Below are positions 8,119-63,627 of a DNA stretch of 64,000 bases, piece by piece. The stretch's first letter is position 1; the number at the start of each line of letters is the position of its first letter. Source of the DNA: Candidatus Doudnabacteria bacterium RIFCSPHIGHO2_02_FULL_42_25. Lineage in GTDB: Bacteria > Patescibacteriota > Doudnabacteria > UBA920 > O2-02-FULL-48-8. The notes under the pieces were generated by a model. That model saw nothing but the letters and a program-made list of their open reading frames with translations, was not told where the DNA came from and ran no database searches. The DNA lies in the NCBI GenBank assembly GCA_001777665.1, contig MFEQ01000006.1:24309-88308 (forward strand), read 5' to 3'. The translations under genes and the position numbers were made by a program.

Positions 8119-8385
8119 TTACATTCTTCCCTTTAAGGGGCTACGGAACCCTCGGACAATCCAAAGCAGAATTACAGCACCGAGGATCGCGACCAAAAAA
8201 CTCGACAGATTAAATCCGGTGATATCAGGACCTCCAAATAACGTCACGACCCATCCTCCGAGCAATGCCCCTAGAATTCCCACGATGATATTTGAGCCAA
8301 TTCCCATTTCAGCATCAGTTTTCATGATGATGCTAGCAGCCCAACCAACTATAGCTCCGAACACGATCCATAAGATTATATTCAT
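8119..8385 (-). CDS. GlsB/YeaQ/YmgE-family small stress membrane protein (transglycosylase-associated protein family)
   Basis: MNIILWIVFGAIVGWAASIIM...GILGALLGGWV. Internal ATG at 8385 preferred over ORF-track start 8493: it is preceded by aaaggagaaat, and a bidirectional hairpin terminator lies at 8451-8484 upstream. Confidence 0.6.
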   Translation of the reverse strand: MNIILWIVFGAIVGWAASIIMKTDAEMGIGSNIIVGILGALLGGWVVTLFGGPDITGFNLSSFLVAILGAVILLWIVRGFRSPLKGRM

Positions 8386-8450
8386 ATATTTCTCCTTTCT
8401 TCCTAAAATTCTAGCAATAATCCACTTAATCTCAACTGGATGATCTGACA

Positions 8451-8999: not shown

Positions 9000-9707
9000 T
9001 TATATTTTGCCTGACAAATAGTTTTTTTGCAATCCCTTCGGGAATTTCTCGATGGCATAACGGAGTGCGGTTCGGGGCATCTTTTTGTAATACTTTCTTA
9101 AAAATTTTTCCTCCGCTCTTTGATCACGATTCCCAACTTCGCGCAACATCCACCCAACTGCTTTGTGAATTAAATCATGCTGATCATTTAACAATATTTT
9201 GGCAATTTTGAACGCTTCATCAAATTGCTTCTCATAAATAAACCGGTGCGTCGCAATCATTGCAATTCGACGATCCCACAAAAGTTTGGATTTAGCTAAT
9301 TTAGTCAATAAACCCTTTGGTCGCTGCAGCAAATATCCACCCACAATATAACCGGCAGAAGTGTCCACCAGATCCCAATTATTAACCCTGGTTGTATTCT
9401 TGATATAAAAATCAAAAATCCGTTTCCTCGCATTTTCACCCGCTTTATTAAATTGAGTAACCAGAATAATCAATGCAACCAAGCGATGCTCGTGAATTTT
9501 ACTATTCAATAAAACTTGCAGATCTTTCAAACTTAAATCTAGATATTTCTTCGCGATTACACGCTGGACTGGTACTCTTATTCCCAAAAATACGTCGCCA
9601 TGACCATAACTCCCTTTTTCAGTCTTAAAAAACCACATACTAGCCTTTGCTCGCCGTGGACTCCCCGCTTTGTTTAATTCATTTTTTAGCTTTTTTAATT
9701 TATTCAT
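9000..9707 (-). CDS. DNA alkylation repair enzyme (AlkD/AlkC-like HEAT-repeat glycosylase family)
   Basis: 235 aa. GWMLREVG, WDLVDTSA, HRFI motifs typical of PF08713. Confidence 0.55.
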   Translation of the reverse strand: MNKLKKLKNELNKAGSPRRAKASMWFFKTEKGSYGHGDVFLGIRVPVQRVIAKKYLDLSLKDLQVLLNSKIHEHRLVALIILVTQFNKAGENARKRIFDFYIKNTTRVNNWDLVDTSAGYIVGGYLLQRPKGLLTKLAKSKLLWDRRIAMIATHRFIYEKQFDEAFKIAKILLNDQHDLIHKAVGWMLREVGNRDQRAEEKFLRKYYKKMPRTALRYAIEKFPKGLQKNYLSGKI

Positions 9708-9751
9708 ACGGAGTAAAATACTCCAATACTCTATAGTATTGGAGTAAATTG

Positions 9752-11233
9752 CTAAACATATCCCGGAAAGAAATCACTTTTGATATGTCTCTTGGATACA
9801 CCCATTGATTTTAACAGCTTCTCGAATGCAACAACCATGCCTCGCGGCCCTGAGACATAAAAGGTCCGATCGGACCAAATAGGTAATTCTGCTTCTAATC
9901 GCTTACGGTCAAGTAATCCATCACGATCAGTGACGACATAGATAATTTTAATTCCAAGCTTATTTGCAGCCTCTGACAAAATATCTTTATATGCAATTTC
10001 GCTCTCTGTCTTCACTGAATAGAATAAGACAATATCTCTTTTTTCTTTTTTATCTATGAGGTACTTCACCATACTCCGAAACGGGGTAATACCTATTCCA
10101 CCTGCGATAAATACTAATTTTTTAGTTGTATCTTTGGGTAGTGTAAAATCTCCGGCCAATTGTCCAGCGAGGACGGTTTCACCTGCATTAAGTGACGTTA
10201 GGGTTTGCTTAAAAGTACTGGGTTTATCATAAAATTTAATTCCTAAATCGATATGATCCTCTGTCGGTGATGATGCAATGGTGAAATAACGCCGGTTTCC
10301 TCGCAAATCATCTTTTTTGGTTTTCAAAGTCCATTCTAAATACTGACCGGGTTGGAAATTAATTTTTCGATTTGGAGTAAATTCAAACCCAAATGTCGCT
10401 GGAGCGATTTCTTTTTTTTCTTTCAGCGTCATTTTATATCTTCCCTTGTCAGAAACTAAAAACGAGAAAATGTTTCCTAAGACTAGAGCTAACTCTGGAC
10501 TAGAATACAATGGGCCTATGATAAAATTGGTTCCAGCAATAAACCCAACTATGGCTCCATAAGTAATTCGAAGTTTTCTGTTCGGGGGTGTAGTCAGCGG
10601 TTCGGTTAACATCACAAATGCAAAGTACAGTGTCGAGGAATTGATTAAGGTGCTTTTTATTGCCGACCAAGAATTGGCACCATCGGGAAGAGAAAAAACT
10701 AAACGAATCAAATAGACTATCAAAAAAGATATAACTAAATCAAAATGCTGGAGTTTCCGAGCAATCAGCAATCCTCCGACTATGACAAACGGAACTAAAT
10801 AGATATTGCCGACCCACCAACTAGCACCTTGCTGGATAACTAATAGCGTGGCAATTACAGCAATCGCAGCTGGATTGAATATGTGCTTCCCACGAAAATT
10901 AATAATGTATTTCGCGGCTTGAGAAAAAACAGCGGCCAAAACTACGAACAGCAAATCAGCCCCTGGCGTAATAATCAGAGTCAAAATCGCTGCAGTGATA
11001 TATGCAGATTCATTATTCGTGGGTACTCGAAATATTTTCGAAAAAATCCAGTTTGTAACCAAACAAACGGCAAATAAAATTAGCGACGTTTGAATAATAT
11101 CTAAAGTATCATACGGCACCCAACCAAAAAATGAAAAAATAATCGCTAAGCTGATCAATATAAGCAAAAAGTACAGCATGGCTCTGTACATAGTAATCTT
11201 ATTCAAAAAGCTATCTATGTATGGAACGGTCAT
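9752..11233 (-). CDS. Membrane-bound oxidoreductase: polytopic N-terminal domain fused to FNR-like FAD/NAD(P)-binding domain
   Basis: C-terminal RYFTIASSP (RxYS FAD motif) and GGIGITPFRSM (NAD-binding). About 260-aa hydrophobic N-terminal half. Confidence 0.5.
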   Translation of the reverse strand: MTVPYIDSFLNKITMYRAMLYFLLILISLAIIFSFFGWVPYDTLDIIQTSLILFAVCLVTNWIFSKIFRVPTNNESAYITAAILTLIITPGADLLFVVLAAVFSQAAKYIINFRGKHIFNPAAIAVIATLLVIQQGASWWVGNIYLVPFVIVGGLLIARKLQHFDLVISFLIVYLIRLVFSLPDGANSWSAIKSTLINSSTLYFAFVMLTEPLTTPPNRKLRITYGAIVGFIAGTNFIIGPLYSSPELALVLGNIFSFLVSDKGRYKMTLKEKKEIAPATFGFEFTPNRKINFQPGQYLEWTLKTKKDDLRGNRRYFTIASSPTEDHIDLGIKFYDKPSTFKQTLTSLNAGETVLAGQLAGDFTLPKDTTKKLVFIAGGIGITPFRSMVKYLIDKKEKRDIVLFYSVKTESEIAYKDILSEAANKLGIKIIYVVTDRDGLLDRKRLEAELPIWSDRTFYVSGPRGMVVAFEKLLKSMGVSKRHIKSDFFPGYV

Positions 11234-11909: not shown

Positions 11910-11938
11910 TTGACAAAATAGCCAAAAAGGAGTACAGT
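11910..11938 (+). promoter_or_regulatory. Sigma70-like promoter of GC-rich island 1 (TTGACA-17-TACAGT)
   Basis: TTGACA at 11910-11915, 17-nt spacer, TACAGT at 11933-11938. Followed by AAGGAGG at 11950-11956. Confidence 0.55.
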
Positions 11939-11965
11939 AATTTGTTCTTAAGGAGGAATAGCGCG

Positions 11966-12169
11966 ATGACCAAGAACCATCGAGACGGCGAAAAGTTCGG
12001 GGGTAATCACACTACCCTTCTAGATTTGGCCGTGACGATGGTAGACATCGCGGCCAAGTACTCTGAAGTAAAAACTATTAGTCCGGGCATGCTTCAGGTA
12101 AACCCCAACAAATCCGGCGGATCCCAGCGTGTGAAATTCGCTTGGATGAAGGGGGGGGGCTTCTTATGA
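11966..12169 (+). CDS. GC-rich island 1, ORF1 (67 aa, MTKNHRDGEKFGGNHTTLLDL...), unknown function
   Basis: ATG 8 nt after AAGGAGG. GC-rich codon usage unlike the host. Stop overlaps the next ATG (ttATGA). Confidence 0.5.
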   Translation: MTKNHRDGEKFGGNHTTLLDLAVTMVDIAAKYSEVKTISPGMLQVNPNKSGGSQRVKFAWMKGGGFL

Positions 12170-12312
12170 CCGTTCGGCAAAACCGATCGGTCCAGGAAGT
12201 TCGAGTCTACACGTCGGACACTCAGACGACCATGGTCGCGCTAGCAAGAGCCGCTCGAGACCGAGATATTCCCATCGGGTTTCTGAAGAAGGATAAGACG
12301 CAAACCTACTAG
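12166..12312 (+). CDS. GC-rich island 1, ORF2 (48 aa, MTVRQNRSVQEVRVYTSDTQTTMVALARAARDRDIPIGFLKKDKTQTY), translationally coupled
   Basis: ATGA start/stop overlap with ORF1. Not in ORF track (<60 aa). Confidence 0.45.
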   Translation: MTVRQNRSVQEVRVYTSDTQTTMVALARAARDRDIPIGFLKKDKTQTY

Positions 12313-12329
12313 GCTTGGAGGATACGCAG

Positions 12330-12791
12330 ATGGCAGTCAACGCAATGGGAGCCTCGGCGGTTGCCGAGTTGCTGGGTGACCTGACAGATCGGACGAAGTA
12401 CACTGAGGGGGTCCTGAAAGGGATGCTCGGTGTCATCCGAAACGAAGAGCTGCATCACACGACGATCATCGGCAAGATCGGAATCGTGCCGCTGTCGCTT
12501 GAGCAGCTCAACAAGCTCAAGTACGTGGACGAGGCCAACCAGAAGACGGCATTCGGTTCTGACATCGCCACGGCCATCCGGGCTGAAATGACGCGACGGA
12601 CGAGCATCAAGATCGAATTCGAGTCCCTCTTCCGGACGCTCTACGCCGGCGCAGAGTACGGACCCGAGAAAGTGATGGACGCAATCCAGCGTTACGAGGA
12701 GGCCATGCGCTCGAGCTCGACCTCGTTCGCTCCTCCCCCGCCGGTTCCAACGACGGATAGCAACGACGGCTTCGCGGCACGGACGCACTAA
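12330..12791 (+). CDS. GC-rich island 1, ORF3 (153 aa, MAVNAMGASAVAELLGDL...APPPPVPTTDSNDGFAARTH), unknown function
   Basis: GGAGGA at 12317-12322 precedes ATG 12330. ORF track offers TTG 12315. Pro-rich C-terminal tail. Confidence 0.5.
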   Translation: MAVNAMGASAVAELLGDLTDRTKYTEGVLKGMLGVIRNEELHHTTIIGKIGIVPLSLEQLNKLKYVDEANQKTAFGSDIATAIRAEMTRRTSIKIEFESLFRTLYAGAEYGPEKVMDAIQRYEEAMRSSSTSFAPPPPVPTTDSNDGFAARTH

Positions 12792-12814
12792 TCACCCGCG
12801 TCGTCAGGACGCAC

Positions 12815-12856
12815 AAACGGCGAGCCCAACACTGGGCCCGCCGTTTTTCTTTTGTT
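12815..12856 (+). terminator. Intrinsic terminator of island 1
   Basis: aaacggcgagcccaacactgggcccgccgtttttctttt. Confidence 0.65.
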
Positions 12857-12877: not shown

Positions 12878-12909
12878 TTACCTAGTTGCCCATATGGGCA
12901 ACTAGGTAA
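12878..12909. repeat. Perfect 32-bp palindrome ttACCTAGTTGCCCATATGGGCAACTAGGTaa (CATATG-core palindrome family, copy 1)
   Basis: Identical 28-bp core at 49787-49814 and 63554-63581. Variants at 43124-43157 and 62962-62989. Confidence 0.9.
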
Positions 12910-12925: not shown

Positions 12926-12957
12926 CCTCTAATTTCAGCGATCGCTGAAATTAGAGG
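12926..12957. repeat. Perfect 32-bp palindrome cctctaatttcaGCGATCGCtgaaattagagg, immediately 3' of the dnaX stop
   Basis: Self-complementary. Same GCGATCGC core as the palindrome at 43164-43195 and the direct repeats at 56335/57514. Confidence 0.85.
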
Positions 12958-12959
12958 AA

Positions 12960-14444
12960 CTAGTTCTCTACTTCCCCGCCCATAATTTTGAGGGCGGACT
13001 CCACTAACTCATCTTTTTGCTCCACTTGAGCCTCACCTTTTTGTAACGTAGGTTTTACCATCAGTTTCAGTCCCGTCACTTCTTCGATTACTTGATCGAC
13101 AACGATTCGATTCTTACGCGCTTCGATCGCATCTTTATGAAATTTATATGGAAATATCACTACCAGTTCTTTTCCTTCTATAGAAATAGGCTGAGCTAGT
13201 TTTAAACTCGAGATAAGCGAGTGGTTATATTCTTTTAGTTTTTCCAGAATCTGCGGCCAGTGAGCTTGGACTTTGGCAAATAACTCCCCCTCGCCCTCTC
13301 TTACATTAAGAGGGGGTTCCTCTGCTGCTTCATCCCCCCTTAATATAAGGGGGGATTGAGGGGGGTTATTCTCCTCGGTCGCCTCTACTGCGGCTAATTC
13401 AAGTGGCAGACTCTGGATCGATGACCATTTGATTTCACCTTCAGCTTTCTGGAATATCTGAATGATCTGCATAATTCTTGGCAATTCCAAAGCTTGGGCT
13501 TGATCCTTCATCTTCTGTGAAATTTCTTCGGTATAACCAAAATCAGAAGTTGTCCCCACTTTCGTCAACAATATTTTTCGCAAATACTCTAAAAAATCTT
13601 TTTCAAATTGATATAAATCTTTGCCCCCATAAGTCAGATCTGAAATAAAACTCACCGCTTCTTGGGTTTGATTTTCTACGAGCAGATCTAGGAATTTACT
13701 CAAAGTCTTCACGCCTGTTAAACCGAGGACTGTTTCGACTAATTCTTCAGTAATCTCGCCTTCGGCGTAATTCATAACTTGATCGAGTAGTGATAGCCCA
13801 TCTCGAAAACTGCCATCCGCAGCAGTCGCGATTTCCATCAGGGCTCCTTCACTAACTTTGATCTGATTATCGGAAGCCACATATGCGAGATGCTTGCTTA
13901 AATCTGCAATGCCGACTTTTTTAAAATCAAATCGTTGCGTCCGCGAAATAATCGTGGCTGGAACTTTATGAATTTCGGTCGTGGCCAAAATAAATACGGC
14001 ATGACTCGGTGGTTCTTCCAAAGTCTTAAGTAATGCATTAAAAGCGCCTTTTGAAAGCATGTGCACTTCATCGACAATAATCACTTTATATGTGGCCTTA
14101 GTTGGGGCAAATTGCAAATGATCGATCAATTCTCGAATATTATCCACGCCAGTGTGCGACGCCGCATCTATTTCCAGCAAATCTAAACTGGTATTCTCTA
14201 GAAATGGTTTACAGATCTCGCATTCGTTGCAGGGTTCCGAGCCTGTTCTATTCTGACAATTAATAGCCCGCGCAAAAATCCGAGCTAGCGTCGTTTTCCC
14301 GACCCCTCTGGGTCCGGTGAATAAATAAGCGTGGCCCACGCGATTATTGGCGACCGCATTGGCGAGCGTGGTTTTGATGTGTTCCTGATTGACCACGGAA
14401 CCGAAATTCAGTGGCCGATATTTTCTATACAATACTAAGTTCAT
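12960..14444 (-). CDS. dnaX: DNA polymerase III subunit gamma/tau
   Basis: Walker A GPRGVGKTT, clamp-loader motifs. Contains an in-frame GC-rich insertion (about 13290-13375) encoding EENNPPQSPLILRGDEAAEEPPLNVREGEGE. Confidence 0.85.
   Translation of the reverse strand: MNLVLYRKYRPLNFGSVVNQEHIKTTLANAVANNRVGHAYLFTGPRGVGKTTLARIFARAINCQNRTGSEPCNECEICKPFLENTSLDLLEIDAASHTGVDNIRELIDHLQFAPTKATYKVIIVDEVHMLSKGAFNALLKTLEEPPSHAVFILATTEIHKVPATIISRTQRFDFKKVGIADLSKHLAYVASDNQIKVSEGALMEIATAADGSFRDGLSLLDQVMNYAEGEITEELVETVLGLTGVKTLSKFLDLLVENQTQEAVSFISDLTYGGKDLYQFEKDFLEYLRKILLTKVGTTSDFGYTEEISQKMKDQAQALELPRIMQIIQIFQKAEGEIKWSSIQSLPLELAAVEATEENNPPQSPLILRGDEAAEEPPLNVREGEGELFAKVQAHWPQILEKLKEYNHSLISSLKLAQPISIEGKELVVIFPYKFHKDAIEARKNRIVVDQVIEEVTGLKLMVKPTLQKGEAQVEQKDELVESALKIMGGEVEN
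13334..13374. repeat. Copy of the ccccttaatataagggg-ggttag-gaggggttat element embedded in-frame in dnaX
   Basis: ccccccttaatataaggggggattgaggggggttattctcc. Compare 60616-60669 and 21040-21085 (reverse orientation). Confidence 0.65.
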
Positions 14445-16537: not shown

Positions 16538-16638
16538 TTTAACCATTTCGAGGGCCGGTCAATTGACCGGTTAGCGAGAAATCGATTTTCCGAGAGTGAC
16601 TCCTCTTAGGAGGGATCTCTCACTTCGTTCGAGATGGG
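16538..16638 (+). repeat. Structured repeat family ccatttcga...GGAGGGATCTCTCACTTCGTTCGAGATGG, copy A
   Basis: Shares aaccatttcga, an internal GC hairpin (ggccggtcaattgaccgg), gagaaatcg and a 29-nt 3' block with copies at 19844-19919 and 27001-27082. 5' ccatttcga pairs with 3' tcgagatgg (one G-U pair). Confidence 0.7.
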
Positions 16639-19843: not shown

Positions 19844-19919
19844 TAACCATTTCGACCCCGGACTTGATCCGGGGGAGAAATCGCTCTTGGGAGGGATCTC
19901 TCTCTTCGTTCGAGATGGG
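19844..19919 (+). repeat. ccatttcga...GGAGGGATCTCTCTCTTCGTTCGAGATGG element, copy B
   Basis: ttttaaccatttcga + hairpin ccccggacttgatccgggg + gagaaatcg + gggagggatctctctcttcgttcgagatggg. Confidence 0.7.
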
Positions 19920-21017: not shown

Positions 21018-21039
21018 CTGCAGTCTAAGGCTTAGGATA

Positions 21040-21085
21040 TAACCCCTCCTAACCTCCCCTTATATTAAGGGGAGGAACAACTGCA
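21040..21085 (-). repeat. gcagttgttcctccccttaatataaggggaggttaggaggggttat element (reverse orientation) in the 5' leader of paralog 2
   Basis: Reverse complement is about 95% identical over about 46 nt to 60616-60669. Confidence 0.75.
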
Positions 21086-21656: not shown

Positions 21657-22589
21657 ATGAGCCTGAAAATAATTCATACCAAAAATTTACGTTGGATCGA
21701 CATCGTCGGACCTGAAGACAGCGATCTCACCTATCTCAAAGAACACTTCAAATTTCACCCGCTTGATTTTGAAGATATCATCACGCCATCGATCCGGACA
21801 AAAATCGACGAATATCCGGCCTACCATTTCATCGTTTTGCTTTTTCCATACTATAGTAAAGAAAACAATGAAATCCGTTCAGTGGAGGTTGATTTTTTGA
21901 TCGGTCCGGATTATGTGATCACTATTCACAATGGCAAAATGAAAACTCTGAACAACCTGGTACACAACGCGCAGCAGTACGACCAGACCCGGAATGCGAT
22001 GATGATGCAAGGATCAGGATTTTTGCTGTTTACTATTTTGGAAGCATTGTTCAAAAGAAGCTCTCCGATTCTGGACCACATCAATCGAGAAGTCCTAAGT
22101 GCCGAGAAAAATGTGTTCCAACTTGACATCAAAACTTTGGAAAAATTATCTGAACTTAAAAAAAACATCATCATCTACCGCCGTATCGTAAAAATGCACC
22201 GTTATGTTTTAAACAAAATTCTGCACTCTTCAAATGACTATCTGAAATTCAAAGACCACAAAACTTATTTTCAGGATTTGATCGAATACGGAGAAAACAT
22301 TTGGAACGTGCTGTCTTCTGACAAAGAAAGTGTGGAGAGCTTCGAAGAAACCAACCAATCTCTAGGCACGCATCGTATCAATGATATTTTGCAAGTCTTA
22401 ACAGTCCTCTCTGTTGTTTTAGCAGCACTAAATTTGATTACAAATATTTTGGTATTTATGGAACGAACCAACATCGAAGAAAACTACGGTCTGTCGAACG
22501 ATTTATACTTAATCAGCTTCATCACTGGCTTCATGTTTGTTGTTACCATAACCATGCTTTATTACTTCCGTAAACGCCGCTGGTTGTAA
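21657..22589 (+). CDS. corA: CorA-family Mg2+/Co2+ transporter
   Basis: Two C-terminal TM helices; typical CorA N-terminal WIDI..P motif. Start moved to ATG 21657 (MSLKIIHT). Confidence 0.65.
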   Translation: MSLKIIHTKNLRWIDIVGPEDSDLTYLKEHFKFHPLDFEDIITPSIRTKIDEYPAYHFIVLLFPYYSKENNEIRSVEVDFLIGPDYVITIHNGKMKTLNNLVHNAQQYDQTRNAMMMQGSGFLLFTILEALFKRSSPILDHINREVLSAEKNVFQLDIKTLEKLSELKKNIIIYRRIVKMHRYVLNKILHSSNDYLKFKDHKTYFQDLIEYGENIWNVLSSDKESVESFEETNQSLGTHRINDILQVLTVLSVVLAALNLITNILVFMERTNIEENYGLSNDLYLISFITGFMFVVTITMLYYFRKRRWL

Positions 22590-22600
22590 AATTAGTTATT

Positions 22601-22628
22601 TGCTACCATACTTGGTAGTATGGTAGCA
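22601..22628. promoter_or_regulatory. Palindromic operator-like site TGCTACCATACT-tggt-AGTATGGTAGCA upstream of the TrpR-like gene
   Basis: Perfect 12-bp inverted arms, 4-bp spacer, about 29 nt upstream of ATG 22657. Second degenerate copy at 23186-23213 upstream of cysS. Confidence 0.5.
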
Positions 22629-22656
22629 TTTTGCTCAAGTATTAAAAGCTAAACAA

Positions 22657-23175
22657 ATGTCAAAGTTTCCACGAGTTTTAACTAAAAAAGAACAAGAAGA
22701 ACTCTTTATAGAATTTGCGCAAGCCCTCGCGAGTTTGCATTCGGCTGTAGAAATGGCAAATTTTATCAAAGATCTATTATCGGAACCAGAAACAATGATG
22801 TTGGCACGAAGATTGCAAATAGCAAAATTGCTCTATAAAGGTTTGAATTACCGAGAGATAAAAGAAGAGTTGAAGGTCAGTTTCGGCACAATTGCTAGAG
22901 TTCAGACTTGGATGCAAATATACGGGGAGGGCTATCGGACAGTTCTTGAACGAGTCAGCCGAAAAAAATATGACCCTACAAAAGATGTCTCTGACTGGAA
23001 AAAGGTTAAGCGCCGATATCCTTTATACTTTTGGCCGGAATTACTATTAGATGAGATAATAAAATCATCGAATAAAAAACAAAAGCAAAAACTTTTGGCT
23101 GTATTGGCAAAGCAAAAAGAAAAAACCGGTTTAAGTAAAGAGTTGGAACATATTCTCAAAAGCGCTCAACTCTAA
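22657..23175 (+). CDS. TrpR-like YerC/YecD-family HTH protein
   Basis: LSEPETMMLARRLQIAKLL..GLNYREIKEELKVSFGTIARV matches TrpR/YerC HTH. Confidence 0.5.
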   Translation: MSKFPRVLTKKEQEELFIEFAQALASLHSAVEMANFIKDLLSEPETMMLARRLQIAKLLYKGLNYREIKEELKVSFGTIARVQTWMQIYGEGYRTVLERVSRKKYDPTKDVSDWKKVKRRYPLYFWPELLLDEIIKSSNKKQKQKLLAVLAKQKEKTGLSKELEHILKSAQL

Positions 23176-23185
23176 TTTAGCAATT

Positions 23186-23213
23186 TGCTACCATACTTGG
23201 TAGTATGAGAGCA
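23186..23213. promoter_or_regulatory. Second (degenerate) copy of the TGCTACCATACT palindrome, upstream of cysS
   Basis: tgctaccatacttggtagtatgagagca; two mismatches in the right arm. Confidence 0.4.
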
Positions 23214-23269
23214 TTTAGCTAGTTCATCGAATTAATTAAAATTTATTTAAAATTTGTTATAATAGAGCA

Positions 23270-26401: not shown

Positions 26402-26508
26402 CGCTCGGAATAAAATTTTTATGCACCGGCCATAAAATTCTGCTGAATTTTTGGCCTACGCGCTCGGTCCGTCGACCTGCGCGAGTTGCTAAAAATTTAT
26501 TCCTCGCT
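26402..26508 (+). ncRNA. Candidate structured RNA (about 105 nt), copy 1 of a two-copy family with compensatory changes
   Basis: Conserved core accggccRtaaaattctgctgaattttYggcctacgcgctcggtccgtcgacctgcgcgagtt. Closing stems differ between copies but are each self-complementary. A/G and T/C substitutions maintain a base pair in the ggccRtaaaattc hairpin. Confidence 0.45.
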
Positions 26509-27000: not shown

Positions 27001-27082
27001 TACCACTTCGAACGATTAGTGAGAAGTCGCTCCTACAAGGGTTAGCGCTTGGAGGAGGGATCTCTCACTTCGTTCGAGATGG
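27001..27082 (+). repeat. ccacttcga...GGAGGAGGGATCTCTCACTTCGTTCGAGATGG element, copy C
   Basis: Shares 5' accaYttcga, gagaaRtcg and the 29-nt 3' block with copies A and B. Confidence 0.65.
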
Positions 27083-27139
27083 TAAAACGCTTTCGCTGGG
27101 ATGGTAAAAAAAGTCATGATTTAGTAGAATATGTAGGCT

Positions 27140-27765: not shown

Positions 27766-27808
27766 AAAAAGGAGGCCACCGCGAGCATGCTCGCGGTGGC
27801 CTTTTTGC
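27766..27808. terminator. Bidirectional terminator (aaaaaggaggccaccgcgagcatgctcgcggtggccttttt)
   Basis: Perfect 14-bp GC stem flanked by A-run and T-run. Confidence 0.75.
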
Positions 27809-27864: not shown

Positions 27865-28077
27865 CTATCCGTGAATACGTCTCAGGAGCTGGTGCCGGCT
27901 CTCTGCAGTAGCGAGTTGGTTCGAAGCGAACCGACGCGCCTGTTGAACCAACTCCTTCATCGCAGGATCCTGGCTTTCCAGGATGACCTGGGGATCGAGC
28001 TTCCTTTCACGGATGTAAGTTTCAAACTGCTGCTGCTCGAACTCTTCGAGTGGCAGGATGTGGCGGGATTCAGGCAC
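27865..28077 (-). CDS. GC-rich small ORF (70 aa, MPESRHILPLEEFEQQQFETYIRERKLDPQ...), unknown; sits where rpmA would be expected downstream of rplU
   Basis: GTG start 7 nt after AAGGAGG on the minus strand. GC-rich island about 27860-28120. Confidence 0.4.
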   Translation of the reverse strand: MPESRHILPLEEFEQQQFETYIRERKLDPQVILESQDPAMKELVQQARRFASNQLATAESRHQLLRRIHG

Positions 28078-28159
28078 GGGGCTACCTCCTTGGGGAAGCG
28101 GTCGGCGAACTTAACAGCCAAAAGCAAATCACAAAAAGCTTGTGACCTAGTTTCGGATT

Positions 28160-28468
28160 TTAAGCGATGCTTTGGATTTCGACCACTGTTTGTTGCTGGC
28201 GGTGCCCAGTTTTTCTTCGGTACCGAGACTTCGCTCGATATTTAAACACCACTAATTTTTCACCTTTTTGTTGCTTCAAAACTTTGCCAGTAACCTTAGC
28301 TCCTGACAAATATGGTTTACCTAAATTAACGCTATCATCAGACGCGACTAAAAGAACCTTATCAAAGGTCACAGTGTCGCCTTCTTGGGCGGTGAGTTTT
28401 TCGATTATGAGTTTGTCCTTTGGGGAGACCAGATACTGCTTCCCGCCGGTTTCAATTACTGCTTGCAT
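28160..28468 (-). CDS. rplU: 50S ribosomal protein L21
   Basis: MQAVIETGGKQYLV... matches the L21 N-terminus. Start moved to the internal ATG at 28468. Confidence 0.8.
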   Translation of the reverse strand: MQAVIETGGKQYLVSPKDKLIIEKLTAQEGDTVTFDKVLLVASDDSVNLGKPYLSGAKVTGKVLKQQKGEKLVVFKYRAKSRYRRKTGHRQQQTVVEIQSIA

Positions 28469-42633: not shown

Positions 42634-42707
42634 AATTTACGAAATTAGTAAATTCGTACCAATTAGTAATTAGTAAAGCTCAATAATTATACAATAAACC
42701 CCTAGTA

Positions 42708-42736
42708 TTGACAAATTGCCAAGAAGAATGTATTAT
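42708..42736 (+). promoter_or_regulatory. Sigma70-like promoter of GC island (TTGACA-17-TATTAT)
   Basis: TTGACA 42708-42713, TATTAT 42731-42736, GGAGG 42760-42764, ATG 42771. Confidence 0.55.
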
Positions 42737-42770
42737 ATTGTGTTCTACTGCTGAAAATTGGAGGATTTTC

Positions 42771-43031
42771 ATGAGACGAAAAGGAAAAAACCACATCTGT
42801 GAAGACCACAGTTCGTGGTTGAGTATGCGGAACACGGGGGTCTGTCACGTCGAGTTACGTGGATCCAGGGCCTACCTCAGCGTGGCCTACTACAACGGCA
42901 CGACGTGGCTGCCTAAATTGGTCAGAATCCACTTCTGCCCTTTCTGCGCTAAACCTCTGGGGAAGAGGAAGGTGCGCAAGCTCCGCAAGACAGGGACGAA
43001 GTCGCTTCACTCCCGCCCCCTCTCGAAGTAG
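42771..43031 (+). CDS. GC-rich small ORF (86 aa), putative zinc-ribbon protein (HICEDH...CPFC)
   Basis: ORF with SD. Cys/His pairs; basic C-terminal tail KRKVRKLRKTGTK. Confidence 0.45.
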   Translation: MRRKGKNHICEDHSSWLSMRNTGVCHVELRGSRAYLSVAYYNGTTWLPKLVRIHFCPFCAKPLGKRKVRKLRKTGTKSLHSRPLSK

Positions 43032-43050
43032 TATCCACTCTACTTCGCTG

Positions 43051-43092
43051 CCGAAATCGCGTTGGGCGCCAGCTCGACGCGATTTTTCTTTT
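43051..43092 (+). terminator. Intrinsic terminator of the 42771 island
   Basis: gaaatcgcg...cgcgatttttctttt. Confidence 0.6.
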
Positions 43093-43123
43093 AAGCTTCA
43101 CAATTTTAACTTGCCGCGGTCAT

Positions 43124-43157
43124 GTACCTATTTGCCCCATATGGGACAAATAGGTAC
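43124..43157. repeat. 34-bp near-perfect palindrome gtacctatttgccccATATGggacaaataggtac (variant of CATATG-core family)
   Basis: One mismatch. Same architecture: ACCTA..TTGCCC-CATATG-GGGCAA..TAGGT. Confidence 0.8.
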
Positions 43158-43163
43158 CCCTGC

Positions 43164-43195
43164 AACATAAAAGGTGCGATCGCACCTTTTATGTT
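43164..43195. repeat. Perfect 32-bp palindrome aacataaaaggtGCGATCGCaccttttatgtt
   Basis: Self-complementary. Paired with the preceding palindrome exactly as at 12878/12926. Confidence 0.85.
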
Positions 43196-56370: not shown

Positions 56371-56960
56371 ATTCTTTTTACAGCTTCAATGAACATTTTG
56401 TTAGTATCGTCAGATACAATTATGAGCCCTCGCACTATTCTTCTGTATGCAGGATCATCGGATTGGCCTCTTCCTCTCGTTATATGATCGAAGCCTCCTA
56501 CTGCAGTCACTAAAATCCAAGGATTGTGCTCTTCCACATCAGGTAATTCATGCCGGTGCTCATTGAAATCCCGACGGTATTCATCTAACCGTAACTGCAG
56601 TAATTTATCCCAATCGATCAAGAATTTCTCCTCAATCCCGAAAGATTTTAAAATTTCTTTGTATGCAGTGAGAATTCCATTTTTTACTTCTTTCAAATAC
56701 TCCCTAAAAAAATCTTCGTGAAAATTAATCAGTGTTTCAGTTTGAAAATAGACTAAACAGAGCGCCGTGACTACTAATTCATTAAAGATCCGATCTTGTT
56801 CAGTTTGGGATAACGAGTCAAAATTAATTTCGCTTCTAAAATCTATATTTCGAAATAAGTCAAAAGCTGACTTTATTGCCTTCATAGTAATGGCCACAGT
56901 ATCTTTTGCCGAATTTGGAGGACCGTAAACAAGTTTTCTGAACATAAAATAGAGTCTCAC
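56367..56960 (-). CDS. Hypothetical protein (197 aa) with possible HEPN-like Rx4H motif (RRDFNEH)
   Basis: ORF. The motif call is weak pattern-matching only. Confidence 0.3.
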   Translation of the reverse strand: MRLYFMFRKLVYGPPNSAKDTVAITMKAIKSAFDLFRNIDFRSEINFDSLSQTEQDRIFNELVVTALCLVYFQTETLINFHEDFFREYLKEVKNGILTAYKEILKSFGIEEKFLIDWDKLLQLRLDEYRRDFNEHRHELPDVEEHNPWILVTAVGGFDHITRGRGQSDDPAYRRIVRGLIIVSDDTNKMFIEAVKRI

Positions 56961-56965
56961 TACGC

Positions 56966-57514
56966 CTAATTGTGCGATCGTGTATTTTGCGTAGAATCAA
57001 ACAGCATTCTGCCTTCTAGGATATTAACATTTAATTCTACTTGTAATTCTTTTAATAGCTCTTTAAATTCTGGTAGTAGCTCCCAAGGTCCGATAAAAAC
57101 ACTCTTTTGCAACATCATAAAGCCGTTTTGAATTAAAAATCGTCTTAAAAATTGTCTGGCTTTTTTCTTTTCTTCGGGGATATCAAACATAACTAGAGTT
57201 GAAAATCCGTTATTCTTTGCCCTTCTCAACTTTCTTGAGTATATATATTTCAAACTCCTTGCCCGCCCTAAATTCGTTATCTGATAGTATGTTTTTCTTT
57301 CTTTTTTGATTTTTTTTACTAAGCCATCTCTGTCTAGTTCCCAAAAAGCTCTGGAAATTTTATAGCGATCATAATATTTAAGCCTTTTGATATATTGATA
57401 CTTGCCTTCAAAAGGATAAGGAATCAGCTCCCCCATATCGCGCAAAAACCAAAGCAATTCTCCAGTAATTGTCTTTAGACGCTTCTTGATTTTTCTTTTG
57501 GTAGTACGTTTCAT
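56966..57514 (-). CDS. wHTH + Cas2-like (VapD/Cas2 fold) protein, paralog A
   Basis: C-terminal half LVMFDIPEEKKKARQFLRRFLIQNGFMMLQKSVFIGPWE matches the Cas2 signature (V.YD.s....R..l...L...G.r.Q.SVF). Basic N-terminal domain. Paralog at 62995-63546. Confidence 0.4.
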   Translation of the reverse strand: MKRTTKRKIKKRLKTITGELLWFLRDMGELIPYPFEGKYQYIKRLKYYDRYKISRAFWELDRDGLVKKIKKERKTYYQITNLGRARSLKYIYSRKLRRAKNNGFSTLVMFDIPEEKKKARQFLRRFLIQNGFMMLQKSVFIGPWELLPEFKELLKELQVELNVNILEGRMLFDSTQNTRSHN

Positions 57515-57549
57515 ACGTATTTTACGCGATCGCGCATTTTACGTATTAT
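57514..57549 (+). repeat. 36-bp direct repeat (right copy) tacgtattttacGCGATCGCgcattttacgtattat
   Basis: See 56335-56370. Confidence 0.8.
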
Positions 57550-57556
57550 AGCAAAT

Positions 57557-60615: not shown

Positions 60616-60669
60616 GCAGTTGTTCCTCCCCTTAATATAAGGGGAGGTTAGGAGGGGTTATTCATAAGG
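60616..60669 (+). repeat. gcagttgttcctccccttaatataaggggaggttaggaggggttattc element in the 5' leader of the BNR-repeat gene
   Basis: See 21040-21085 and 13334-13374. Confidence 0.75.
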
Positions 60670-61451: not shown

Positions 61452-61479
61452 GGATTAATTATACCATTTCACCCCAGTA

Positions 61480-61509
61480 TTGACAAAAACACCCAAAAAA
61501 CAGTATACT
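61480..61509 (+). promoter_or_regulatory. Sigma70-like promoter (TTGACA-18-TATACT) of GC island; followed by SD + 6-codon uORF (MQPLRS, 61545-61565) and an 11-bp-stem hairpin (61580-61631)
   Basis: TTGACA 61480-61485, TATACT 61504-61509, AAGGAGG 61533-61539, inverted repeat gcagaagagtg/cactcttctgc. Confidence 0.5.
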
Positions 61510-61650
61510 TATACGTTGCACATTTCGTGCACAAGGAGGATAAGATGCAACCTTTACGTAGTTAGATTTTGAACTCACTGCAGAAGAGTGCTTATAACTT
61601 CAGATAATCCTGTCTGATCCACTCTTCTGCTAACAGCAGAGGAGAGGGTC

Positions 61651-62265
61651 ATGATCAGGAACATCGCAGACGCGTCAGAACAGTACCACAACGCCGTCAA
61701 CGCCTGCCGCGAGGTCTTCGCGGCGGCCGAGCGCGAATTCGTAGAGCCGAAGGGCGTGAAAGCCCACATCGAGGAAGCGCGGCGGCTCTACGCGGAACTG
61801 GGTGACGAGGCGTCAGCCGTGAAAGAGGTGGACAATGCAAGGCAGTGGCTGATCGGGATCGCCGGGAAGTTCTTGCGCGGTGCGGTCGAGTTCTTCGGCG
61901 ACCGCATCTACGAGCTCTCCTACATGTCGCTCGACCGCGACATCGTCGAGAACATGCAGGCTAGGTTGCGCGAGTACGAGGAAGCAGTGCGCGTCGGCGA
62001 AGCCAGCAGCTTCGAGGTACGACTCACCGCATACAAAAAACTCGCGACCGTGGTCAACGGCGCGCGCACGGAGCAGCAGCGGCGCATCGAGCACCGCGAG
62101 AAGCTGGCGCAGGAACGCGCTGAACGGGAGCAACACGAACGTCGGCGGCGTCGGGAGGAAGAAGCCGAGGCCGATCGCGTTCGAGCGAAGCAGCAACAGG
62201 AGGCTGCTGAGGCTGCGGCGCGCGAGGAACGCGCGAAGCAGTTCGACGAGCTCTTCGGAGCTTAG
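61651..62265 (+). CDS. GC-rich island ORF (204 aa) with highly charged C-terminal helix (ERAEREQHERRRRREEEAEADRVRAKQQQEAAE)
   Basis: ATG 6 nt after GAGAGGG. GC-rich. Confidence 0.5.
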   Translation: MIRNIADASEQYHNAVNACREVFAAAEREFVEPKGVKAHIEEARRLYAELGDEASAVKEVDNARQWLIGIAGKFLRGAVEFFGDRIYELSYMSLDRDIVENMQARLREYEEAVRVGEASSFEVRLTAYKKLATVVNGARTEQQRRIEHREKLAQERAEREQHERRRRREEEAEADRVRAKQQQEAAEAAAREERAKQFDELFGA

Positions 62266-62267
62266 GG

Positions 62268-62308
62268 GGTCCCTAGGGGTGTGGCACACAGGTGCCCGCC
62301 CCTTTTTC
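62268..62308 (+). terminator. Intrinsic terminator
   Basis: GC hairpin ...ggcacacaggtgcccgcccctttttc. Confidence 0.55.
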
Positions 62309-62323
62309 ATTTCCAGGTTAGGG

Positions 62324-62352
62324 TTGACAGTGGCCTCAAAATCTTATATACT
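62324..62352 (+). promoter_or_regulatory. Sigma70-like promoter (TTGACA-17-TATACT) with about 170-nt structured leader
   Basis: TTGACA 62324-62329, TATACT 62347-62352. Leader hairpins gcggcaacttcgccgc and ccgctcgcgg. AGGAGG 62514-62519. Confidence 0.5.
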
Positions 62353-62525
62353 GTTAAGCTTTAAACGGAGAAAGTTTCGTTAGCCCTGTCTGCTAAGCGA
62401 AACGGGAAAAGCAACTCAAAAAGAGCGAACGCAAGATCATATCAAACAAGTAACTCTAATTGAATGCAGCTTCGCGGCAACTTCGCCGCAAGTTTACCCG
62501 TCCGCTCGCGGACAGGAGGTCAACC

Positions 62526-62888
62526 ATGCCTGACCCACAGGACATGGACCCCACGGTCGCTCAGTTCGCTGAGGACCTGAAGTACACCCAGTGCCACGCT
62601 GAGGTTCACTACCTCAGTGTGGATGGGACGCCCCGGATGCTACGGTTCCACCCGTGGACATCCGTACTTGTCGAAGTCTCTGAGGACTGCCTAAAGGTGG
62701 TCGAGAGATTCGATAAGCGCCCCGGGGAAACCTGGAGCGAGAAGACGACGGTGATCGAGCTGAATAAGCTCTTGATCGCCAAACTCTTCGACTGCGAGGG
62801 ATGTGAACGATGCGACGACAAAGGGTCGGGCGCATTGTGGACATTCTTGCAGGGGCAACGTTCTAGGAGTACTTGGGGGTACTGTTAG
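62526..62888 (+). CDS. GC-rich island ORF (120 aa, MPDPQDMDPTVAQFAEDL...CEGCERCDD), unknown; C-terminal Cys cluster
   Basis: ATG 6 nt after AGGAGG. ORF track gives upstream ATG 62460, which lacks an SD. Confidence 0.5.
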   Translation: MPDPQDMDPTVAQFAEDLKYTQCHAEVHYLSVDGTPRMLRFHPWTSVLVEVSEDCLKVVERFDKRPGETWSEKTTVIELNKLLIAKLFDCEGCERCDDKGSGALWTFLQGQRSRSTWGYC

Positions 62889-62896
62889 AATAAACA

Positions 62897-62932
62897 CCCG
62901 GGCGACACGCAGTGTCCCCGGGTTTTTCTTTT
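62897..62932 (+). terminator. Intrinsic terminator (cccgggcgacacgcagtgtccccggg + T-run)
   Basis: Near-perfect stem with 1-nt bulge, then tttttctttt. Confidence 0.7.
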
Positions 62933-62961
62933 CCCCAATTCCTTACACATACCAACCTTTT

Positions 62962-62989
62962 TACCTAGTTGGCCATATGGGCATTTAGG
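62962..62989. repeat. Degenerate copy of the CATATG-core palindrome (acctagttgGccatatgggcaTTtaggt)
   Basis: Three substitutions relative to the perfect copies. Lies between the GC island and the Cas2-like gene. Confidence 0.7.
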
Positions 62990-62994
62990 TAAAG

Positions 62995-63546
62995 TCAGCC
63001 AAGTTTAAATCTTTTTATTAAATCGGCTTTTATATCTATTTCTTCAGCAGTTATTAATCGTACAAAAGGCCTTATCTCATAGATCTCTTTTAAAAAATCA
63101 ACTTCATCCTCACAAGGATAAGGACATGCCCAAAGACTTTTCTGGACGAGCTCAAAACCAATCTCCCCCAACTTCCTAGTAAACTCTTTTCGGTTATTAT
63201 TAAATTCGACTGGTATATCGTACGTTACTAATCGCCATTTTCTATCCCATTTTTTCTGTGGTTTAATTTTCATATCGTCAATTTTAAATTTCAACCATTT
63301 CTCCTTCCCTTTTTTCGTTAATTTAATAACGGTTTTATCTCCTTCCTGACCTATACTGACCATCCTTGAATTTTCTAAACCCTTAAAAGATCGATCTATT
63401 TGAGTCTTGCTATATTTCTTATATAAATCATACTGACGAAAAATTTCTGCCATACCTGGTGCCACTATGACCACTGCTAAAATCCCGACCTTGGACAGGA
63501 CGTATAAAATATCTTTAGCAATTTCCGAGCGTTTAGCCATACACAA
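62995..63546 (-). CDS. wHTH + Cas2-like protein, paralog B; bracketed by CATATG-core palindromes
   Basis: WRLVTYDIPVEFNNNRKEFTRKLGEIGFELVQKSLWACP matches the same signature as 56966-57514. Confidence 0.4.
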   Translation of the reverse strand: MCMAKRSEIAKDILYVLSKVGILAVVIVAPGMAEIFRQYDLYKKYSKTQIDRSFKGLENSRMVSIGQEGDKTVIKLTKKGKEKWLKFKIDDMKIKPQKKWDRKWRLVTYDIPVEFNNNRKEFTRKLGEIGFELVQKSLWACPYPCEDEVDFLKEIYEIRPFVRLITAEEIDIKADLIKRFKLG

Positions 63547-63553
63547 ATTCTAT

Positions 63554-63581
63554 ACCTAGTTGCCCATATGGGCAACTAGGT
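63554..63581. repeat. Perfect 28-bp palindrome ACCTAGTTGCCCATATGGGCAACTAGGT (copy 3), 8 nt upstream of the Cas2-like gene start
   Basis: Identical to copies 1 and 2. Confidence 0.9.
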
Positions 63582-63627
63582 TACGGGTGTACCCAGTTGT
63601 TCACTTATTAAAAAGACTTGTTCTTAA

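Follow-up and report, generated by a model that had tools for sequence, protein, structure and literature searches.

The 64,000-nucleotide stretch of DNA analysed here (the window) is carried by contig MFFA01000003.1 of assembly GCA_001780055.1, from a Candidatus Doudnabacteria member of the CPR/Patescibacteria. Its background is 41% GC, and it encodes the housekeeping genes dnaX, lysS, PBP2, mreBCD and proS as well as one tRNA; at the Rfam gathering threshold, tRNA-Gln alone was matched. A custom dyad scan calls two perfect 32-bp palindromes (16+16) with the core GCGATCGC: CCTCTAATTTCAGCGATCGCTGAAATTAGAGG at 12926-12957, which starts 2 nt past the stop codon of dnaX, and AACATAAAAGGTGCGATCGCACCTTTTATGTT at 43164-43195, which lies 16 nt past the stop codon of a pilin-like gene. 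From its sequence, each can be read as a 12+8+12 arrangement of arm, symmetric core and arm, and each is an orphan site, by which we mean a dyad without an adjacent regulator gene. Both follow a CATATG palindrome, at gaps of 16 bp (12926 pair) and 6 bp (43164 pair), as an earlier sequence-only reading had described them. That reading had also recognised the octamer at the centre of direct repeats at 56335 and 57514. The repeat, here called the B-type element, measures 37 nt, is identical at 36 of 37 positions between 56335-56371 and 57514-57550, and has GCGATCGC as its exact centre; its 32-nt unit is TACGTATTTTAY-GCGATCGC-GCATTTTACGTA. One copy (57514-57550) is located directly 5' of the ATG of a regulator gene, paralog B, and the other (56335-56371) is found 3' of B and a 197-aa ORF, 6 nt past the terminator of a high-GC cassette. 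Inside an oxidoreductase ORF (9752-11233), 29 nt at 9848-9876 are 86% identical to 43158-43186, that is, to the spacer and left half of the 43164 dyad, and have CCGATCGG in place of its core; this resemblance may be due to chance.

The association of octamer and palindrome is real and far beyond chance. Four copies of GCGATCGC are present in the 64-kb window where 0.66 are expected, a number that none of 100 shuffles reached, and all six copies in a total of ~95 kb are intergenic and form the centre of such an element. GCGATCGC is the cyanobacterial HIP1 octamer as well as a restriction site of the AsiSI/PvuI type. It might represent a HIP1-like background or the footprint of a restriction-modification system, its position within the palindromes being incidental, and some non-palindromic matches in a metagenome scan indeed look like HIP1 in coding sequence. 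We consider this reading barely credible. The organism belongs to the Doudnabacteria, related Doudnabacteria have CCGATCGG or ACGATCGT at the same position, and HIP1 in cyanobacteria is roughly a thousand-fold commoner and is found within genes too, whereas the octamer is rare here and strictly dyad-centred. The link to a methyltransferase or restriction system that the sequence-only reading had raised was not borne out, as the Pfam tables jointly covering the window list neither kind of gene. For the window, octamer frequency and gene content together refute both versions of this candidate, including the general over-representation that the same reading had named as what would refute its own proposal.

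The CATATG palindromes constitute a second class (A-type) with five copies in the 64 kb, three of which are 100% identical over 28 bp; both classes are intergenic throughout the window. A perfect orphan copy (12878-12909) precedes the 12926 dyad and lies 24 nt past the terminator of a high-GC cassette, and an imperfect variant (43124-43157), in which one arm change is compensated and one position is mismatched, precedes the 43164 dyad. A further orphan (49786-49816) is found after a high-GC cassette that is convergent with the PBP2 gene. The remaining two flank a second regulator gene, paralog A: a variant located immediately 3' of the gene and 27 nt past a cassette terminator (62961-62992), and a copy positioned over its promoter (63553-63583). 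The CATATG dyads at 49786, 62961 and 63553 lack a GCGATCGC partner, and the GCGATCGC elements at 56335 and 57514 lack a CATATG partner. Where the two classes do occur side by side, their centre-to-centre distances differ (48 bp versus 39 bp), and the pairing is thus without fixed geometry. The sequence-only reading had envisaged a composite recombination or regulatory site. Its regulatory part has held up, in that both classes are tied to PaaX-like winged-helix genes and place a copy on the promoter or start of each. The notion of a composite two-dyad architecture finds no support, given the variable spacing, the occurrence of each class alone and the apparent assignment of the partners to different paralogs.

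What are the genes that these sites accompany? Paralog A (62995-63540, minus strand) encodes a protein of 181 aa composed of a winged helix and a Cas2-like PaaX_M domain. Paralog B (56966-57514, minus strand; 182 aa) is syntenic in other Doudnabacteria, where it lies between an M50 peptidase gene and proS. A third member, paralog C (181 aa, 50% identical to A), is located 6.7 kb to the left of the window, in the 10 kb that were read beyond its left end, so that at least three paralogs reside within ~95 kb of this Doudnabacteria chromosome. A and B match the Pfam family PaaX_M (PF20803) with E-values of 8.8e-19 and 4.4e-17, and an AlphaFold model of B (pLDDT 81.5) finds E. coli PaaX as its best PDB match in Foldseek (8a39; 170 columns, E 7.8e-6), followed by Cas2 proteins for the C-terminal half and by MarR/ArsR-type winged helices for the N-terminal half. 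Neither A nor B matches the PaaX_C domain (PF08223), and against the PaaX equivalog TIGR02277 the proteins score 33-35 bits, where the cutoff is 264.55. The protein is therefore a mini-PaaX and not PaaX itself. Its C-terminal domain also matches Cas2 models (Pfam 7.8e-9, TIGR01573 1.6e-9), and the Asp of a conserved (F/Y)DIP motif is invariant in the family; mini-PaaX adds a fused winged helix to what it shares with Cas2. The NCBI name "CRISPR-associated endonuclease Cas2" for mini-PaaX is probably a misannotation, and no cas1 gene was found among the Pfam-annotated genes. The Pfam tables list no paa genes in the window and hence offer no sign of phenylacetate control, no conserved partner gene emerged across 155 neighbouring genes, and a literature search retrieved no description of the mini-PaaX family or of the dyads.

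Each of the three paralog genes is bracketed by its own kind of site. A is flanked by the CATATG dyads at 62961 and 63553, and C by CCCTATGTTCAGCGATCGCTTAAATTAGGG and CCTAAGGTAAGCGATCGCTTAATTTAGGG. B is enclosed by the GCGATCGC repeat (56335 and 57514) jointly with the 197-aa ORF (56367-56960), a low-GC reading frame between B and the downstream dyad that has no family match and is missing from the orthologous loci L007 and L008. The upstream copies coincide with promoter-like sequences. At paralog A, the dyad contains or borders on the hexamers TTGCCC-17-TAGAAT, with the start codon 6 nt past the -10 element. At paralog B, TTAGCA-17-TATAAT is found, the TATAAT being supplied by the 3' end of the repeat on the minus strand, and at other mini-PaaX loci a TATAAT is located immediately 5' of the dyad. 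The orphan palindromes can be related to these cognate sites by their half-sites. The C half-site GCGATCGCTTAAATTAGGG nearly equals the 12926 half-site GCGATCGCTGAAATTAGAGG, which implies that at 12926 the C site is present in perfectly symmetric form. The 43164 half-site AACATAAAAGGTGCGA agrees with the B half-site TACGTAAAATGCGCGA at 12 of 16 positions and with the site of a Doudnabacteria paralog in locus L010 at 13 of 16; the L010 site has the arms closest to those of 43164, and a search of the source genome for an ortholog of its paralog found none.

The arrangement is widespread among relatives. In Doudnabacteria, B is embedded in the conserved gene order holB, BNR, frr, M50 peptidase, B, proS, mreBCD and PBP2, and its orthologs on four other Doudnabacteria contigs are flanked on either side by the element TACGTaAAA-N-xCGATCGx'-N-AAAAyACGTA. 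Among these elements, the bases next to CGATCG show palindromic co-variation, giving GCGATCGC, CCGATCGG or ACGATCGT. The paralog at the A position differs between species (26% identity). A family profile built from 17 members detected at least 531 relatives among species-representative genomes, and at least 5,067 clusters (50% identity, E<=1e-10) in a library of 1.84 billion proteins. Among 79 loci that were fetched, nearly all from Patescibacteria, 72 could be tested for a dyad shared between the 150 nt upstream and the 150 nt downstream of the gene, and in 54 of these the shared dyad was stronger than in any shuffle. The same dyad is present on both sides of 52/78 mini-PaaX genes, as compared to 3/140 control genes from the same loci. 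In 1.05 Mb of related sequence, 102 strong dyads were counted (0 in shuffled sequence), 60 of which fall within 200 nt of mini-PaaX genes, a territory amounting to 3.2% of the sequence. The dyads are 28-56 bp long with variable arms, and their cores belong to a few types, namely CGGCCG, CTATAG, CGATCG, GCGACCGC and GCTATAGC. Differences between the two copies around a single gene comprise 31 that are compensated, 18 that are one-sided and 2 that are uncompensated. When metagenomes were scanned for the two GCGATCGC dyads, the hits included long, perfect palindromes built in the same way on unrelated contigs of 31-63% GC, and three of these palindromes abut mini-PaaX genes; the collection does not contain the source genome, so that the cognate paralogs could not be found there.

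How might these palindromes act? On balance, we think that the GCGATCGC palindromes are probably operators, i.e., duplex-DNA binding sites, of a set of dimeric, autoregulatory mini-PaaX paralogs. The association in sequence, the fold, the overlap with promoters and the match of cognate half-sites are shown by the analysis; that mini-PaaX proteins bind these sites and repress transcription is what we infer from them. PaaX of E. coli recognises TGATTC(N27)GAATCA and acts, through steric hindrance, as a repressor of the promoter of its own gene (PMC9493321). In both systems, a Cas2-like domain comes after the winged helix at the N terminus, and the DNA element is a long dyad with distant inverted hexamers. 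The CPR proteins differ in that they have no C-terminal ligand-binding domain, are not found beside paa genes and come as several paralogs per genome, and the CPR dyads, which enclose the gene from either side, have a conserved CG-rich core in addition and are frequently perfect over 30-50 bp. We class the finding as a PaaX-like repressor/operator system, but one that is truncated, multiplied into paralogs and equipped with long palindromes that bracket its genes.

We envision a scenario whereby each paralog gene carries its own site of ~32 bp, composed of an outer arm, an A/T tract and a CG-rich core of 8-14 bp, and whereby the Cas2-like domain serves for dimerisation. One copy of the site covers the promoter or 5' end and would mediate autorepression, as in E. 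coli PaaX, and a second is placed just past the stop codon of the paralog. The 12926 dyad would then probably represent an extra site for paralog C, the 43164 dyad an extra site for paralog B or a B-like paralog, and the neighbouring CATATG dyads extra sites for paralog A. On this reading, the pairs are two independent sites, side by side, for two paralogs, A and C-like at 12878/12926, and A-variant and B-like at 43124/43164. A corollary of the operator model is that each dyad family should map to one paralog, including one flanked by AACATAAAAGGTGCGATCGC-like sites.

A point against operators is that the orphan sites, the 12926 and 43164 palindromes among them, are situated between convergent genes, and that no -10 hexamer can be recognised there, which implies that classical promoter repression cannot be their role. 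The possibility that a downstream dyad is the operator of the next gene was considered and rejected: the gene after the downstream copy is co-directional in 20 and convergent in 14 of 34 cases, a proportion equal to background, and hence downstream copies are not simply the next gene's operators. Where they follow the 3' ends of high-GC cassettes and of convergent genes, the orphan sites would most likely provide a roadblock or insulation, or support looping to other sites. A gene for a YerC/TrpR-like helix-turn-helix protein (22657-23175) is bracketed by a dyad of its own, TTGCTACCATACTTGGTAGTATGGTAGCA (22589-22635 and 23174-23220), the second copy of which precedes cysS, and a related CTATAG-centred dyad (9707-9753) lies upstream of a DNA-alkylation-repair gene. 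That an unrelated regulator gene is bracketed in a like manner supports a general logic of transcription factors and flanking operators in this genome.

Alternatively, the dyads may function as RNA or single-stranded DNA hairpins akin to REP elements, that is, as bidirectional terminators or stabilisers of 3' ends that spread through intergenic regions, and mini-PaaX genes would then merely be associated with them in the way RAYT genes are with REPs. The orphan dyads do fold very stably (-20.9, -18.8 and -23.9 kcal/mol; z -6.5 to -7.6) and are located in 3' regions between convergent genes, as noted above for the GCGATCGC dyads past their stop codons; similar orphan dyads between convergent genes are seen in other CPR contigs. 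A lax terminator scan flags 12878 and 43164 on the plus strand. The identity of three A-type copies over 28 bp, and the excess of compensated over one-sided differences that keeps the symmetry despite variation of the arms, fit the same idea, and both are also awkward for an operator. Preservation of symmetry while the arms differ, even between the two copies of one gene, is not obviously required for recognition by a single protein, and the A-type copies are more uniform than typical operators. It further counts against operators that a cognate protein for 43164 was not found among the proteins searched.

The likeness to REP/RAYT systems (REPtrons) extends to a gene flanked by palindromic repeats, with more copies in 3' regions between convergent genes. 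We nevertheless judge the hairpin alternative unlikely. The B-type element is conserved across species but has direct rather than inverted A-tracts and folds poorly (-8.2 kcal/mol, z -1.4), and this poor folding argues for recognition as duplex DNA. The 12926 dyad has no U-tract on either strand, and a canonical terminator is already present just upstream in each cassette. The mismatch spectrum, used to tell an RNA hairpin from a DNA site, shows no significant G-U signal (18 sense versus 11 antisense among 54 mismatches) and does not discriminate between the two. Moreover, upstream copies overlap promoter hexamers, each paralog has a dyad of its own, and the protein that is flanked is a winged-helix DNA binder with a Cas2-like domain and not an HUH tyrosine transposase.

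A further peculiarity of the window is the proximity of the dyads to islands of high GC. Five or six such islands are present, all on the plus strand, with 51-64% GC in a genome of 41% GC. In each, small ORFs are equipped with a TTGACA-type promoter, an AAGGAGG ribosome-binding site and a terminator that has TTTT(T)CTTTT at its end. The cassette at 11910-12853 reaches 63% GC and comprises all of these parts, with three small ORFs, and the cassette at 42708-43093 has an 86-aa ORF between promoter and terminator; both are followed by the paired dyads. Further islands are located at ~49220-49779, ~55790-56328 and 61480-62933, the last consisting of two units. Five palindromes lie 6-30 nt past the intrinsic terminator of a plus-strand island. 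Essentially no family was assigned to the island ORFs by Pfam, apart from one weak DUF2103 match. The islands resemble "morons", i.e., self-contained foreign gene units, and a megablast of the locus against phage records gave no match that would support a phage origin. Divergent promoter pairs with a common palindromic -35 element (TTGACAA/TTGTCAA) are found at 42686-42736 and 61458-61509, within a 32-nt block repeated at both places; in each pair, lysS or holB, both of them host genes, is driven by one promoter and a high-GC cassette by the other.

As another alternative, the dyads might be recombination sites of the lox or dif kind. The bracketed regulator gene would then be inverted or excised through exchange at the centre of the core, which would also account for the solo sites and for the capture of foreign high-GC cassettes next to them. 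Inverted arms of ~12 bp around a centre of 6-8 bp, the bracketing of a gene and solo sites beside foreign-looking cassettes are all reminiscent of lox, FRT and dif sites and of integron attC sites, the 12+8+12 architecture being a resemblance only; the central region of the dyads is symmetric, which sets them apart. Upstream and downstream dyads are often of the form a-rc(a) and rc(b)-b, each pairing one half with the reverse complement of itself, an outcome that inversion between two directly repeated copies of an asymmetric element would be expected to have. Reflected halves of this kind are exemplified by loci L015, L018 and L029, in which the A-tracts are exact reverse complements. At ~8340-8415 of locus L017, 3' of a mini-PaaX gene, the dyad core GCGA^TCGC is split exactly at its centre by a GC-rich insert of 33 bp, CCCGCCTGCCTCTGCGAGGCACGAGCGGGCAGG. 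In addition, unrelated high-GC cassettes are found 6-50 nt from dyads, and the same syntenic slots hold different high-GC genes in the window, L007 and L005 and nothing in L008. The divergence of the paralog at the A position between species points in the same direction.

Against this stands the gene content: the Pfam tables jointly covering the window contain no tyrosine or serine recombinase, integrase, resolvase or transposase, and there is no conserved partner gene. Paralog B is stably syntenic across species, and no half-dyads, which would indicate insertion into a dyad, were found at the far ends of the cassettes. An association of dyads with high-GC cassettes was seen in the source lineage alone when the CPR loci were compared, and the available assemblies of the source strain are identical and thus offer no strain-level variation at the dyads. 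We regard recombination sites as quite improbable. A bolder version would treat the mini-PaaX genes and their dyads as recombination-active modules across the CPR. Exchange would generate the perfect palindromes, the solo sites and landing pads of fixed orientation for foreign high-GC cassettes, and the protein itself would be the site-recognition or catalytic component, in line with its invariant Cas2-type Asp. We hold this proposal to be similarly doubtful.

How genes are regulated in the CPR/Patescibacteria has, to our knowledge, hardly been explored, and few transcription factors can be recognised in their genomes. Mini-PaaX is an abundant family in this group. Our findings tie this large family, often mislabelled "Cas2", to a recognisable class of long palindromes that bracket its genes and recur elsewhere. 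They provide the first predicted pairs of mini-PaaX proteins and sites, which are directly testable and can be read computationally across thousands of genomes. Two features could point to new biology, namely the strict and perfect symmetry despite variation of the arms, and the orphan sites next to foreign-looking cassettes.

The window contains several other repeated elements. A direct repeat of 155 nt (2518-2672 and 52355-52509; 97% identical) is located immediately 5' of ftsW and mreD. It harbours a long-range stem, CCCAGTAATACAACTTCGATG ... ATCGAAGTTGATATACTGGG, that ends at the ATG, has a similar 3' arm at ~2430 of L007 and finds no Rfam match; it may be a structured leader of cell-wall and division genes. 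A repeat of 63 nt (26425-26487 and 55710-55772; 97% identical) is inverted within the window but has the same orientation relative to the downstream 26519 ORF and proS; it contains two hairpins with a T-rich tail behind them and resembles a terminator or insulator placed ahead of the promoters of these genes. A 46-nt element (21039-21084 and 60616-60661; 100% identical) contains a CCTCCCC that pairs with a GGGGAGG ribosome-binding site (CCTCCCCTTATATTAAGGGGAGG). Its copy at 60616 directly precedes the BNR-repeat gene, and a diverged copy (13332-13371) lies within dnaX, in the part of the ORF that separates domain III from the C-terminal domain. Three copies of CTCTTAGGAGGGATCTCTCACTTCGTTCGAGATGGG (16603-16638, 19884-19919 and 27048-27083; 89-100% identical) occupy intergenic or leader positions. 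Finally, a perfect GC-rich palindrome of 30 bp, AGGCCACCGCGAGCATGCTCGCGGTGGCCT, is located at 27773-27802, right past recR and ahead of an ORF of elevated GC content (27871-28245).
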